Of a stretch of 53,818 nt of DNA, positions 26,571-53,818 are shown piece by piece. Under the pieces are notes generated by a model. It made no database searches, was not told the DNA's origin, and saw only the letters and a list, made by a program, of their open reading frames with translations. Each line of letters starts with the position of its first letter. The first letter of the stretch is position 1. The translations under genes were made by a program, and so were the position numbers. Source of the DNA: Psammoneis japonica (Eukaryota); assembly GCA_008632985.1 (NCBI GenBank), contig QPGO01000214.1, positions 62,001-115,818 of the forward strand, given 5' to 3'.

Positions 26571-29500
26571 AATAGTGAATAGTGACTAAGGACGTGCATA
26601 TAATTGAGGCATTTGGCCATGTCTTGGGCTTGCCCGTCTGCTTTGATAAGTCGACAGTTGTCTGTCTAAGGATTGTTCTCCATCGATCGAAAATGCAAGA
26701 CACACAAAGTGGCTTGGCTGAAAAGGAACAAGATGAGTGGCGTGAGGCTGGGGTGACACTGAAACTCCAACATGGAGTGCTGGAGAAGATGCTTTGCAGC
26801 AAAGAGCTGGTTTGGACTCAGTCATGACCAAAGAGTTGCTGACAACAAGATTTGTCAGAGGGGGGAACAACTCACCTGGGGGGGGGGGGGGGCAATTTGA
26901 CAATTTGGGTCTGCCTTTCATTTTTAATTTGGGTTTTGGGCTCATTGCATTTGAAGTCCCGCCCCATTTGATGAGGGAAGCGACAACTGCATGCTTCATT
27001 GTCAATTTGGGTGCCTTGTTGATGATGTCAGTCCTGCTGCATGAACAGTTCTGGCTCTGTCACATTTGTCATGCACCCTCCCACAACATGTCCGTGTGTC
27101 CTTCTTGTCCTTCTCAACTCGCCCTGTCTCTGTCGAATCTGTCAGCTTTCATTTAAATGAGTCGTTGCCAATTGTCAATTTAAACAGCTGCCTGTTGTTG
27201 TGCATCCGGGAACCACAAATCCAAGTTTTTGATGTCCTCCCCATCGTTGTCTGCTGCTTGCAGCTGTTCATCATCATTGTCTTGGCTCTCTTCTGCCCCT
27301 CTGCACATGCCCAGAATTCCTTTGTCCAAACTTTGCAGTGCTGGTCTGCATCCTTGCTCAACGTCTGCTCGTGAATTGCTTCACCTGATTTTTTGCACCT
27401 TTCCAATCCTGCCTTGTTTCAACCTTGATTCCTTTCAGCTTGGCTGCCCTTCCCACCTTTGCTGCACTTTGTCACCTCTGGAGTCAGCCCCTCCTTCTCA
27501 GCTTCCTTCAACCCTTCCTTTGTTTCACCATGCGTGTGCTGTGCCCAATTGCTCCAGTTGTTCTGAAAACCAGCAGGACGAATTTTTCTTGATTTCCCCG
27601 GTCATGTTGTCTCTCTTTCTTGTCATCTGTCTTTGCACCTCATCCTTCAATGTTTCCCAAAATCAAGCTCTCTTTCCTCAGGGGGTGCACCAGCTCATGT
27701 CATGTGACACATGTCTTCCACGTGCAGATTGGATCGATTCACTGTGACCATTCGGACCCCCCTCCCTTCTGCTGCCAAGTCTGTGATGTGCTGTGGTCCC
27801 CACCAAAAAAGCGCACACTCTGTTTGTGAAAGCAACAACATCCACAATGTGCTCTGGAGCTGTTCTCCAATTTTTGCACAGTGAAAGCACCGCCATGCAC
27901 GGCAATCTCTCATTTCCTGTGTCCTCTTCCACCTCCACTTTGGCTGCTGCCTTGATTGCCAACACATGTCTGGCACTGTCTTCTCCTTGTTGAGAATGAT
28001 GCTGCACACCCACTCAAATTGACAATCTCCTGGTGGCTTGCCATGCGGGTTTCCCTTTTGAAAGCACAGCATGATTTGCTTCCATTCTGCAGCCAACAAA
28101 AACTTGTCAATGCACTCCTCAATGATTTGCTTGCATTTGCCACCTTGACTGCATGCTGGCTCCAGTGCTCCTTTTTCTTTTTCCTCAACAACCATCCCTC
28201 AATTGCCCTCTTGTTGCAATGGCAATTCACTGCTCCACCTTGGGATGATGCTGGAACTTTTTGAAGCTTCCCCCAAAGCGCCAGCCAACCACCCATCATG
28301 TTGCATCAAACAAAGTGGGGAAAGGTTCCCAACACCATTTGCTTTGCGGTGTCACCTCAACCACCTCAATGCTGCCATTGACGAGTCAAGTGTTGCTTTG
28401 GAAGAATCTTTTTCACCTCCACCCCTGAGGTGTGTGGGGTGAGATGTCTCCCCAGACAATGGCAACAAAGAACACACACTCCAACAAGAGGAAAGTTTTG
28501 CAGAGAGCACTTCCTTCATGGGTGTTGATGATGCCAGCAACAATGACTTGCCCAGTCCCAAGCATGTTCACAATGTTGAGGACAGTGGCGGTGCCTTGAA
28601 TTTCAAGCAACATGGTTTCTTTGAACCCCAGCCCAAGCTGTGTCAGAGAACGTCCAACCAAAGGGGCCCTGATGATCTGCCACCTGGTTTTCAAGCAACA
28701 GAGGAATCATGGCTTGGCCCCAGTGGGGCGTCATCTGTTTCATCTGGAAAAGACTCAGACGCCAGCTGCAAATGCACCTTGTCACCCACTGATGGCTTCT
28801 CCCTCCCCCGTTGGATGGCAAAGAGGAGATGACACCAATGAAGAAGATTGGGCTCCACCTCAGTGCTGTTTTGCCACAAAACCACACTGAAGAGTTGGCT
28901 TGGTCCCCACCTTGCATGGAACACTCTTCACAAACACCAGCAGACTTGTCATCTGAGCCCAGGCACAGAACATTGACCCACACATTGCAGCCCAAAAACA
29001 AGAAGCCTTTTTTGGAATTGCCGTGCATTTGTGACAACACTGGAGCTCCAAATGACACTTCTGAGATGTGCAGGGTTGAGCACATGACTCTTGCACAGAC
29101 CAGCCTGATTTCACTGGTTTTTTGGGTGACAAAGACAAGCTCATCAACCAGCTGCAGGAAATGTTCTGCCTGCCTCCACCCTCAACTGTTTGCATGGTGC
29201 AAGAACACTTGGGAGGAACACCACTTCATCTGCATTCCGTGGACATTGTGGTTTGGGATGCTGCATCTCAGATGCAGTGACTGCTCAGTTTCACAAGACA
29301 GGAGAGCCAGAGACACACAGCAAGCCAGCCCAAATGCTCCAATCTGAAGCAGAGCGGGAGACTTGCACCGGCAAGCCCAGTTTTGCAGAGCAGGTGCATT
29401 GTTTGGACAGGGCAAACTTGCAAAAAGTTTGCACCGGAAACTGAACCACAATTCTCTTGGCTGGTTCATGAGCAATTTGCCTGGCCAAGTCTGCCAACAA

Positions 29501-30779
29501 GGTGTTCTGCAGGCAGCCATGTGAATGTGGCAGCACTGCTTGTGCTGAACAGTGACATGGGCATCAGCGCCAAAGAAAATGTGATGCAAGCATGCTGTCT
29601 GCAGAACTCATTCAACTGCAACCTGATGCCGAGTCAAACACTTTGATGCCAGCTCAGCAAGATTCATCCCTGAGTGTTGAGAGAAGTGGTCAGGTGCTCC
29701 TGCTGCGTGCAAAGTCGTCTTTGAATTGAGTTCTTTAACTTTTTCCGCACCCGTGGGACAAAATTTTTTGTCCCGGCATTTTCTCCATTCAGTTCAAGCA
29801 TGGTTGTCATTTCTTTGTTGTTTGTGCATTTGGTCACACATTTCCTGATGTTGTGTTGTTTGAACAGAAAATGTTGCCTTTCCTCTTTGTCAGCAACTTC
29901 AGAAGAATGACTTGGCTCAACACATTTCGACCCACAGACATCCAGTTTAGACACTTGTGAAGCAGGGTGCACAGCCGTGCTGACAAAACCCCCATGCACA
30001 ATGCAAAACTTTGAACAGGACCAAAGATTTCGGAAATTGTCACCAAAAGTCACTCTTCCATGGTGTCTGCATACGTCCCCAGCATGCGTGCATCTGTCCG
30101 TCACTTTTTTGCACCCTGTTGCCCTGGTCCATTCAGATGTGTCGTCCGGTTTTGTGTGTGGCACGGATCTCTTTGCAATTGTCCAAACTGCAGGTCCAAA
30201 GTCCGTCCTGGGGCTTGCAATGCCATCAGACAGAACTGTCACGGTCAAAACAGCACACATTTGTTTGCATTTGTTTGAATGGAAAAGTTTTGTTGTTTGT
30301 GTTGGCATTCTTCACAATTGAAAATTTTGTTTAAATGCAGCAATCGCGCGAAACCGCATGGGTGCGGAAAAAGTTAAAAGTGCGGCATGTTGGTGTGGTG
30401 AAATTGAAGTGGTCATCCTTGGAACAAGCCTTGATCCTTGTGTGTTGCATGCCCAATGCCTGCAGGGCCAGTTTTGCCATCAGCTGACATGGGTGCAACC
30501 TCAACACCATGAGAGACAACAAGCACCAACTGTGCAAAGACAACAGCGCCAAGCATCAAGCCGACCACAAAAATGTGGGCGGGGTGCTGCGCAGGCTTGC
30601 AGTGAGCAAGATGCAGACATCCTTCTTTTGTGATGACCGGCGACACAAAATGTGAGCAGTCATGTGGCACGTGCTTGCGTCGGCATGCACCGGTGCCCAA
30701 CAACAAGTTGCCAGCAATTTTTGCATGTTTGCACATGTGTCACGCTTTGTTGTCTCAATGACAACACTGTGCAAAGACA

Positions 30780-31075
30780 TTGCATTGTGTCAGGCAGTGT
30801 TCAAAAATTCCTGCAGCACTGGTGGCTGTGTGTCCATTGTGGAGAATCCTTCACGAAAGTGGAGTGCATGATCCAGCTCCAATTTCTTCCAGCGCTCGTT
30901 GGCGAAACCTTGGCTGATGACGATCCAAGACTGGCCCCATCTGCCCTCCCAATCAAAGTTGCAGGACTGTCCATCCCTCGTTCAACAGAGTCTGCATCCC
31001 AGAACTGTGAAGCAAGCACTCTTGTGTGCTCTCCCATGATGAGCTCACTTTGTGGCCACTTGCAGTTCACAAGGA
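30780..31075 (+). mobile_element. non-LTR retrotransposon relic (CRE-like post-RT region)
   Basis: LQHWW..FTKVECMI..FLPALVG....DPRLA..ALPIKVAGLSIP...ASQNCEAS resembles the FLPAL / LP..GGLGIP / Y.AS segment of CRE-clade elements. Confidence 0.55.
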
Positions 31076-31424
31076 CACCACATCATCAGAGCGCACAACA
31101 CAGTGATCATCACACATCTTTTCATTGTGATTTTCACTCCTTTTGCAGACAATTTTTTTTGTGGTTTCAAACCTCATCAGTTGTGCAGCTGGCAATGACA
31201 TGTCAACTGTGACAGATTGACACTTTTGTTCTGTGGGATCAGAGCCCCCCCCCCCATGAGGAAAATTGTTTCACTTTGAAACAGGGGCACGTTTTCACTG
31301 TGAGAGTGCCCACCCTCTGTCCCTGCAAAACCCGCAAATTGCAGTCATTTGTGTTGCACCATGAACATTCCACTTTGTTGTTTGCACTCAAACCAAGTGA
31401 CGCCAATGGAGACAACACCCTCTG

Positions 31425-52900: not shown

Positions 52901-53350
52901 ATGTTTGTGTGTCTCAGCCGACATGTTCCATCCACATGATCAAACATTTCGTGTGATGACGTCATGTCTGACGGATCACAGCTCTGGTCTCCAAGAGCAT
53001 GTTGTTCATGTCCATGAATGTTGACACACACAAAGGACTCAGCAATTGTGCAAGCAACCATGGGACCAACATGGCGCTTGCCACAAAAATCAATTGATCG
53101 CAACAATGCCGTCACACCGTTTGCAATGCCCGTTCCAGGCGATGAACATCACAGCGCGCTGGCTCTGACAAAGTGACCAAATGCCACCATGATGGCTGAG
53201 AATTGGGTGCAAGACAAGACAGAGTGTTGAGCAGCATCAGCAGGTTCCAGAATTGTGAGATGTTGCGCCATTGGGGCCACTGATCAAACAACAGTGAACC
53301 AGTCGCCAACAACACACAAACTGCCTGTGTTTGTGACAGCACATCAGCAT
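49915..53350 (-). mobile_element. decayed Copia element, second lineage (gag, DSHADT-type protease, partial integrase)
   Basis: gag-like 52630-51455 (GGPGWAFVK, DGRTAF, KKVSDFLKGISD); DLDSHADTCAVG; LCPNQLRANG; LSKRWNIGL; LYSDQMFSKVKS; PWQNLAEASIR; TGSTPDIS. Assignment of 52630-53350 to the element is inferred. Confidence 0.88.
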
Positions 53351-53356
53351 TTGTTC

Positions 53357-53818
53357 AAAACGACATGTTTGTTTTCCTTGAAACAACATGTTTGTTTTCA
53401 ATGAAAAGACATGTTTGTTTTCCTTGAAAAAACACATTTGTTTTTCTTGAAATGACATGTTTGTTTTCCTTGAAACGACATGTTTGTTTTCCTTGAAAAG
53501 ACATGTTTGTTTTCAAGACATGTTTGTTTTCCTTGAAAGACATGTTTGTTTTCCTTGAAACGACATGTTTGTTTTCCTTGAAACACATGTTTGTTTTCCT
53601 TGAAAGACATGTTTGTTTTCCTTGAAAACATGTTTGTTTTCCTTGAAACACATGTTTGTTTTCCTTGAAAACACGTTTGTTTTCCTTGAAACGACATGTT
53701 TGTTTTCCTTGAAAAGACATGTTTGTTTTCCTTGAAACACATGTTTGTTTTCCTTGAAACACATGTTTGTTTTCCTTGAAACCACATGTTTGTTTTCCTT
53801 AAAACACATGTTTGTTTT
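53357..53818 (-). repeat. 23-bp satellite array running off the window
   Basis: Tandem units, several shortened by 1-2 nt. Confidence 0.97.

Follow-up and report, generated by a model that had tools for sequence, protein, structure and literature searches.

In the chlorarachniophyte Bigelowiella natans, mutation-accumulation lines have revealed hypermutation at TpA in integrated DNA of giant viruses and virophages (Mettrop et al., bioRxiv 10.64898/2026.01.13.699255). According to the main text of this preprint, two integrated viral regions gained 231 mutations, of which 230 changed A to G or T to C, all 230 at TpA; these arose in 11 of the 15 lines at a rate of ~6e-7 per site per generation. 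The genome also contains 124 TpA-poor, CpA+TpG-rich clusters, and reverse transcriptase (RT) and DDE domains are enriched among its TpA-poor genes. The preprint proposes an ADAT2-like adenine deaminase, leaving the enzyme unproven, and cites DNA activity of the ADAT2 of amphioxus and trypanosomes. Here, a signature of the same class is described from a diatom. A stretch of 53,818 nucleotides of Psammoneis japonica (GenBank assembly GCA_008632985.1, contig QPGO01000214.1, positions 62,001 to 115,818; referred to as the window) contains ~27 kb of transposon- and satellite-derived DNA that has lost nearly all TA dinucleotides, next to a block of normal genes.

As far as the main text of the preprint allows the comparison, the diatom case appears to be the same kind of process as in B. 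natans, i.e., of a kind that has been in print for some months. In both organisms, TpA is converted to TpG or CpA on both strands and only in non-host DNA, the depletion of TpA is accompanied by a gain of CpA+TpG, and the activity is uneven. The cases differ in the host, which is a rhizarian in B. natans but a stramenopile here. New mutations were measured in B. natans, where the two insertions are still TA-rich (TpA represents 3.3% and 9.2% of their dinucleotides), whereas the diatom shows a near-complete historical footprint (observed/expected ratio [o/e] 0.06) on transposons and a satellite. The co-depletion of CpG present in the diatom is not discussed in the main text of the preprint. An earlier, sequence-only reading of the window knew of no characterized pathway of this kind; this has been overtaken by the 2026 preprint, whose main text reports exactly this mutation class. 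The full-text literature searched, which does not cover most subscription journals, contained no report of TpA-to-TpG/CpA hypermutation beyond the B. natans preprint and none for diatoms. The diatom case is new in that it extends the process to a second supergroup lineage of eukaryotes, shows a footprint that is far more complete, and resolves the extended motif.

Two other systems offer instructive parallels. Repeat-induced point mutation (RIP), as commonly described for Neurospora and other fungi, also consists of dinucleotide-specific transitions at the DNA level that disable transposons in place, de-homogenize repeats, and spare genes. By contrast, RIP converts CpA to TpA, which renders the DNA AT-rich and creates stop codons, whereas the change in the diatom runs in the opposite direction, from TpA to CpA or TpG, creates no stops, shows no tracts coordinated by strand, and leaves the GC content unchanged (47.6% in the TA-erased block vs. 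47.1% in the gene block). The other parallel is with TadA, ADAT2-ADAT3, and the TadA-derived base editors, which convert A to inosine (I) with a T or U directly 5' of the target. In the sections used here of a study on Escherichia coli and Klebsiella, TadA edits mRNA inside UACG (PMC11472039), which matches both the T before and the C after the presumed target in the diatom. However, the natural substrates of these enzymes are RNA loops, and in the diatom TA followed by T is as good a site as TA followed by C.

Over the 27,119 bases from 26,700 to 53,818, TA was observed 115 times vs. 1,862 times expected from the base composition, and TG (o/e 1.63) and CA (o/e 1.70) are in excess. CpG is reduced to 789 of 1,534 expected (o/e 0.51), the o/e of AA and TT is 1.35 and 1.36, respectively, and that of AT is 0.75. 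The gene block used as control (6,800-26,600) has 821 of 1,386 expected TA and a CpG o/e of 0.98. The TA-erased composition, which the sequence-only reading had described as a near-absence of TA with an excess of TG and CA over ~27 kb beside normal genes, is therefore a real observation, and the TA o/e of genes and repeats is clearly different (0.59 vs. 0.06).

The depletion begins abruptly and continues to the end of the window. Bins of 500 bp from 27,001 to the end of the window contain 0-7 TA each, except for 33,001-33,500 (28 TA), which contains an unmutated copy of a miniature inverted-repeat transposable element (MITE), and 39,001-39,500 (13 TA). Among the 2-kb bins from 28,001, TA o/e is at most 0.10 in 11 of 13 and at most 0.22 in all 13. 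The left boundary is sharp: the last TA at normal spacing is at position 26,667, ~100 bp past the stop codon of a gene with an MA3 domain, and only three TA are found between 26,667 and 27,400, each within a TTAA. Thus, in this single window, the change is confined to non-host sequence and spares the host genes; no viral gene was seen among the affected elements. A run of ~17 G (26,876-26,893) lies just within the left edge of the TA-free block. The features of the window are as follows (MITE copies are labeled c1 to c5; LTR, long terminal repeat; LINE, long interspersed nuclear element).

1-6,500, plus strand: Copia-type LTR retroelement, partly TA-depleted (Pfam RVT_2, E 1.8e-12; relatives P0002-P0004)
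6,800-26,670, no strand: host gene block with alpha/beta hydrolase, amine oxidase, ART-domain (ADP-ribosyltransferase), and MA3-domain genes; internal control
26,670-53,818, no strand: TA-erased block of transposon remnants and satellite, reaching past the right end of the window
32,972-33,380, plus strand: MITE copy c1, unmutated, inside the erased block (29 TA; TA o/e 0.89, CpG o/e 1.55)
35,220-35,617, minus strand: MITE copy c2, mutated, compared with c1
36,544-36,956, minus strand: MITE copy c3, largely mutated, with CA where c2 has TG at common sites
37,964-38,353, plus strand: MITE copy c4, largely mutated
39,001-39,500, no strand: island with 13 retained TA, of which several lie within TTAA or TTTAAA
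41,253-41,731, plus strand: array of a 23-bp satellite, TA-free
41,584-43,016 (plus strand), 46,451-47,527, and 50,439-51,400: three copies of a ~1.4-kb unit with many adjacent TG/CA double differences
43,010-44,896, no strand: two opposed arrays of the 23-bp satellite (43,010-43,758 and 43,773-44,896) with 3 TA in ~1.9 kb
45,225-46,142, plus strand: 5'-truncated LINE, last ~300 residues of ORF2 (E 1.4e-32)
46,153-46,452, minus strand: MITE copy c5, partial, largely mutated
49,261-49,891, minus strand: array of the 23-bp satellite
51,458-52,636, minus strand: open frame of 393 codons without Tyr, from a transposon-type protein family that has no Pfam model (767 relatives at E<=1e-3)
53,358-53,818, minus strand: array of the 23-bp satellite, running off the window

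The direction of the change is recorded in the proteins of the transposons, because the conversion of TA to TG or CA turns Tyr into Cys or His. The Copia-type element consists of a gag-protease frame (1-3,021) and an RT/RNase H frame (5,193-6,473), which are separated by sequence with two assembly gaps (4,014-4,259 and 4,401-5,191); its TA o/e is 0.19 over 1-4,013 and 0.35 over 5,192-6,476 at a normal CpG (0.88-0.95). In the 13 columns of the gag comparison that have Tyr in at least 2/3 relatives, the window retains a single Tyr and has His in five, Cys in four, and Phe in three; its Tyr content is 0.89%, compared with 3.1-3.2% in the relatives. The RT box, which we take to be the YVDD motif, reads HVDD. 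The same trend is present in the open frame at 51,458-52,636. Seven columns of its alignment have Tyr in 60% or more of 30 relatives; in the window, four of these read Cys (TGC, TGT, TGC, and TGC), two His (CAT and CAC), and one Glu, but other conserved columns are kept (14 of 16 Leu, all 4 Trp, and 11 of 12 Ala). The Tyr content of 150 listed relatives has a median of 2.96% and a minimum of 1.22% vs. 0% in the window. Likewise, none of the Tyr residues of its relatives is retained in the LINE tail.

The comparison with protein relatives indicates that TA is the ancestral state and that the change ran from TA to TG or CA. The relatives keep their Tyr; therefore, these families are not natively TA-free, and the possibility that they already lacked TA and carried His and Cys was not borne out. 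A foreign, natively TA-poor origin of the block is ruled out by the TA and Tyr kept in sister copies and relatives, and selection on codons is ruled out by the fact that non-coding DNA and the satellite are affected as well.

The copies of the MITE family (~400 bp, with terminal inverted repeats; five copies in the window) provide evidence that the mutations occurred in place. The 29 TA sites of c1 are represented in c2 by TG at 14 sites and by CA at 8 sites, with 3 still TA. Whereas these 22 of 29 sites changed, only 16 of the 168 remaining A/T positions went from A:T to G:C, and AA and TT are not depleted in the block, which upholds the claim that A-to-G changes are enriched at TpA and do not reflect a generic shift from AT to GC. 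Broken down by the preceding base, the A-to-G rate is 0.31 after T and 0.17-0.18 after A, C, or G. In all comparisons with c1, its TA was retained in 8 of 110 cases, and the other 15 dinucleotides in 28-66%. General GC-biased conversion is ruled out, because AA, TT, and AT are not lost.

At one site shared among the MITE copies, c2 has TG and c3-c5 have CA. Only TA is one step away from both. This signature recurs among the repeats: adjacent double differences of CA vs. TG occur 135 times over 16 non-satellite repeat pairs in the window, compared with 27 for the runner-up, and 32 such differences fall within a single pair of the ~1.4-kb unit (966 columns, 78% identity). A CA/TG double difference can also arise from a decayed CpG. 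Nevertheless, most are estimated to derive from TA, because the TA sites are exhausted but about half of the CpG remain. Also among other genomic copies, as represented in a public DNA run (X1), TG-to-CA alternatives are found at 31,144-31,145 and 31,752-31,753.

The range of affected elements argues for an imprint that was imposed on unrelated sequences after their arrival, as the sequence-only reading had claimed: it includes the Copia-type element, the LINE tail, the family of the open frame at 51,458-52,636 (which we read as gag-like), the MITE family, and the 23-bp satellite with its seven arrays in the window. The list of unrelated repeats given in that reading stands only in part. The MITE family, the satellite, and one LINE tail are present in the TA-erased block, but the only verified Copia element lies outside 26.7-53.8 kb, and the "two Copia lineages" reported inside were not recovered: Pfam gave no RT, integrase, or transposase match inside 26.7-53.8 kb, whether for the 150 longest open frames in TA-poor regions or for 14 frames at E up to 1, and a tblastn search of the window with the gag and RT of the Copia element found no second copy. 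The only Pfam matches inside this region are "ice-binding" matches derived from the satellite and sub-threshold matches to GATase_7 and zf-RVT. The zf-RVT match (E 0.048) is the weak match of the LINE tail, whose relatives have ~1,970 amino acids and an endonuclease domain of the apurinic/apyrimidinic (APE) type (PF03372, precomputed on the matches). The family of the open frame at 51,458-52,636 has no name, and none of the 16 relatives scanned has a Pfam match.

The change affects both strands to the same extent. In the block, TG (2,754) and CA (2,865) are almost equally frequent, also outside the satellites (2,303 and 2,466), and Tyr is replaced by both Cys and His inside one frame. No strand tracts were found; TG and CA are randomly interleaved along the sequence (runs z 0.61; variance 0.95 of binomial), and processive events on one strand were dropped as an explanation because TG and CA are unclustered. 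The earlier claim that TA-to-TG and TA-to-CA changes are the same event on opposite strands is compatible with this balance, but the double-stranded substrate deduced from it does not follow, because TpA is self-complementary and exposure of either strand in single-stranded form would leave an identical footprint.

The few TA that remain reveal an extended sequence context. TTAA accounts for 31 of the 86 TA that remain outside c1 but for 32 of 820 among the genes (Fisher p 8e-18). Relative to the density in the gene block, survival is highest for TTAA (0.72), followed by CTAA/TTAG (0.17), GTAA/TTAC (0.11), CTAG (0.09), CTAC/GTAG (0.06), and ATAA/TTAT (0.04); it is 0.01 for GTAC, ATAG/CTAT, and ATAC/GTAT, and none of the 78 ATAT expected is left. 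The partly mutated Copia element has a broadly similar order of survival except for TTAA, of which 2 of 8.6 expected remain (0.23). At sites of known ancestor, the ratio of hit to unhit TA by the next base is 30/16 for C, 14/9 for T, 8/18 for A, and 6/15 for G. These results fit a rule in which, on the strand of the target A, C or T as the next base is favorable, G is less so, and A is protective. The gains of tetranucleotides agree with this rule in five of six asymmetric classes, with the sixth setting C against T. The flank rule is new relative to the main text of the B. natans preprint, which does not contain the words "TTAA", "flanking", or "trinucleotide" and does not mention diatoms; its supplements fall outside this comparison.

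The decay of methylated CpG also ends in TG and CA and is present in the block, but it is rejected as the cause of the composition, because it cannot remove TA: the CpG depletion is real, yet the Copia element has a TA o/e of 0.19 at a CpG o/e of 0.88. We take the older elements to have lost half of their CpG to this decay, which is distinct from the loss of TA and slower. About three quarters of the TA but no CpG have been lost from the Copia element, more than 90% of the TA and half of the CpG from the old block, and neither from c1, which suggests that, per site, TA is lost several times faster than CpG decays. Moreover, the duplicates at 41,584-42,398 and 46,451-47,264, which are 93% identical, differ at CpG in 25 of their 57 mismatches and at hardly any former TA sites, suggesting that the loss of TA was complete before this duplication and that the decay of CpG is ongoing.

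What is observed in the window is a change of defined class, direction, and context, symmetrical between the strands, made in place, and confined to non-host DNA. It is probably caused by a host process that converts T:A to C:G at 5'-TA-3' in resident transposon and satellite DNA and spares the genes. Such a process would turn a T:A pair into a C:G pair only at the self-complementary step 5'-TA-3', and its substrate would be transposon- and satellite-derived DNA that is already resident in the chromosome, with adjacent genes spared. Each event would change TA to TG on one strand or, via the other strand, to CA, and single events would build up on either strand until TA is nearly exhausted. TA followed by C or T would be lost fastest and TA followed by G next, whereas TA followed by A would be nearly immune, so that TTAA survives. 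The elements would be disabled by missense changes and the loss of signals, with their frames staying open. The process might be recruited by repetition, by silent chromatin, or by small RNA.

The chemistry is quite possibly one in which a zinc deaminase, TadA/ADAT-like or other, converts adenine in DNA to hypoxanthine, which is then read as G at replication. Adenine deamination is favored because the preference for T before and C after the target mirrors the UACG context of TadA, and because the main text of the B. natans preprint cites a DNA-active ADAT2. Somewhat more tentatively, diatoms may possess a dedicated mutator that recognizes invading or silenced DNA and erases its TpA by adenine deamination, preferably where a pyrimidine follows; it would belong to the same system as in chlorarachniophytes and represent an old and widespread defense of the SAR supergroup (stramenopiles, alveolates, and rhizarians).

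The same targeted process at TpA might instead attack thymine, via oxidation to 5-hydroxymethyluracil by a TET/JBP-type enzyme or via another T adduct, with subsequent mispairing or faulty repair converting T to C at 5'-(G/A)TA-3'. All counts fit this alternative equally well, since the changes from TA to CA and from TA to TG are mirror images and "A before a pyrimidine" is the same as "T after a purine", and in dinoflagellates 5-hydroxymethyluracil is enriched at TpA. A thymine target is unlikely, however, given that the parts of the literature consulted contain no evidence of such a base in diatoms and offer an enzyme precedent for the preference for T before and C after only in the case of adenine (TadA), with none found for thymine. 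Repair in methylated, silent chromatin, with the pattern as its untargeted by-product, is an improbable source. In such a scenario, mismatches from the deamination of 5-methylcytosine would recruit error-prone patch synthesis of the polymerase eta type, which would mutate A:T pairs nearby. Although the coexistence of CpG decay and TA loss in the block (0.51 and 0.06) is as this alternative predicts, and polymerase eta favors A after T or A, AA is not depleted (1.35), and A changes to G after A (0.17) as often as after C or G (0.17-0.18). In addition, about three quarters of the TA of the Copia element are gone although its CpG is intact (0.88), so that the deamination of CpG was not the trigger, and a loss of 92-95% of the TA far exceeds a side effect.

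An origin in RNA, through A-to-I editing of retroelement transcripts by ADAR-like or ADAT-type enzymes and fixation by reverse transcription, would agree with the U that commonly precedes the edited A in the accounts of known RNA editors consulted. Yet both strands are hit equally (as seen in the counts of TG and CA), Cys and His both replace Tyr in the same frames, a MITE of the DNA type and a satellite are affected, and paralogous copies in place differ by TG vs. CA at identical sites, which makes RNA editing very improbable; the exclusion of strand-biased RNA editing in the sequence-only reading is sustained by the strand symmetry and the affected MITE and satellite. Hardly to be expected, finally, is an artifact in which the true DNA contains TA and systematic errors of base calling or polishing occurred at a modified TA motif in heterochromatin. 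Modified motifs do cause systematic errors in long reads, and run X1 may represent the assembly's own data. However, the k-mer contigs of X1 (depth 31-46) are identical to the window at every base over five stretches, ~5 kb in total (26,878-27,665; 27,646-29,784; 30,316-30,948; 32,229-32,728; and 33,342-34,300), at a depth of 46.5 in the gene block. A strand-dependent miscall should also produce CG and TA calls, but CG is depleted, and there are copies with fixed, differing outcomes, including the TG-to-CA alternatives in X1 mentioned above. The bases are thus supported by reads, albeit from a run that may be the source of the assembly.

Several points weigh against a targeted host process acting on adenine in transposons. 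No enzyme or modified base has been seen, and the sequence by itself cannot separate an A-directed from a T-directed process; the equal preference for TA followed by T and TA followed by C is not predicted by the UACG preference of TadA. Ancestral states are inferred, with c3-c5 aligning poorly to the center of c1 and sharing ancestry among themselves. The dinucleotide retention and next-base counts based on c1 are noisy and not independent, the gene block stands in for the original elements in the expected tetranucleotide counts, and X1, which may be the source of the assembly, is hence not an independent run. A single window underlies the link to transposons, and part of the TA-erased DNA is not demonstrably repetitive: the region 26.8-29.5 kb is equally TA-free but single copy at 90% likeness, and Pfam scans recognized no transposon protein in it that would identify it as a former repeat. 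Finally, copy c1 of the very abundant MITE is untouched inside the erased block.

The summed contig depth in X1 is 7,454-120,880 for the MITE and ~120-2,280 for 29.55-32.0 kb, vs. ~46 for single-copy DNA. Given the intact copy c1, neither copy number nor location appears to be sufficient for mutation, unless c1 inserted very recently. The single-copy status, at 90% likeness, of much of the TA-free DNA (such as 26.8-29.5 kb) neither supports nor excludes repetition as the trigger, because hypermutation itself drives copies apart. Copy c1 is normal in both TA and CpG, and the MITE family looks recently active.

The change from TA to TG or CA has peculiar consequences for coding sequences. It never creates a stop codon, since TGA can be reached solely from TAA, which is itself a stop, and it removes TAA and TAG. 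Because these stops are removed and none are created, long open frames are present in all six frames; by our count from the list of open reading frames (ORFs), the 27-kb block has 44 frames that span 150 codons or more, vs. 16 in the 20-kb gene block. The elements would therefore be inactivated by the replacement of Tyr and other missense changes and by the loss of signals that contain TA (of the TATA and AATAAA types). For genome annotation, this constitutes a hazard, as gene predictors will call Tyr-free "proteins" rich in Cys and His in mutated DNA, and transposons hidden by the erasure of TA will be missed by homology searches.

If the proposed process exists, it would be an adenine-based counterpart of RIP and APOBEC and an overlooked arm of genome defense in SAR, carried out by an enzyme that deaminates adenine in DNA naturally. 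To our knowledge, natural DNA adenine deaminases are barely known; the adenine base editors used in the laboratory were evolved from an RNA enzyme. Its presence in a second, distant lineage turns a curiosity of Bigelowiella into a candidate for a general defense and provides comparative leverage, namely deaminase genes that are common to the lineages with the signature and absent from others. The flank motif (TA followed by C or T over G over A, with immunity of TTAA) provides a concrete prediction against which the biochemistry of candidate enzymes can be judged. A process of this kind would also have a bearing on the stability of transgenes in diatom biotechnology.

Several observations concern individual elements. 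The frame of the Copia element switches from 1 to 3 near 2,943-2,949, where its relative P0004 is uninterrupted, which may reflect a frameshift mutation or, alternatively, a programmed shift. The satellite arrays at 43,010-44,896 form a large palindrome with arms of 490 nt that are 93% complementary and meet near 43,760-43,773. The sub-threshold match to GATase_7 (33,870-34,014 in an ORF at 33,150-34,175, plus strand; E 6e-5, 23.5 bits vs. a cut-off of 25) may represent a hypermutated fragment of a host gene. An ORF at 41,827-42,582 had a best score of 0.84 (ribosomal S25) in a protein atlas, which is at chance level. A metagenome scan with a degenerate pattern of the MITE ends yielded 118 loci with one match each, all by chance, and no extra copies of the family. 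One environmental contig (L100:277-325) has a 48-nt end that matches the MITE terminus at 92% identity, with a normal TA content, and therefore represents a related transposon in another organism.

The gene block is of diatom origin by its best matches, which point to a raphid pennate host: the amine-oxidase frame (18,442-19,962) is 50-63% identical to diatom proteins, with named matches from Nitzschia, Bacillariaceae, Cylindrotheca, Seminavis, and Pseudo-nitzschia. The gene block next to the mutated DNA also includes a host gene for a protein with an ADP-ribosyltransferase domain (10,163-11,167, plus strand; Pfam ADPrib_exo_Tox, E 6.7e-12; ART, E 3.3e-11), and nothing ties this gene to the mutation process. 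A further run (X2), although labeled "DNA?", has the behavior of an RNA run. Its cover spans the gene block to ~26.4 kb but is almost absent over 26.8-34.4 kb, a pattern that is not evidence on whether the TA-erased block is silent. Contigs of X2 join over 88 bases with GT..AG ends (25,519-25,608), resembling an intron in the gene with the MA3 domain. Over 24,663-26,772 (~2.1 kb of gene sequence), an X1 contig and the window disagree at 11 letters and one gap, and X2 differs elsewhere; these differences probably represent allelic variation in a diploid.

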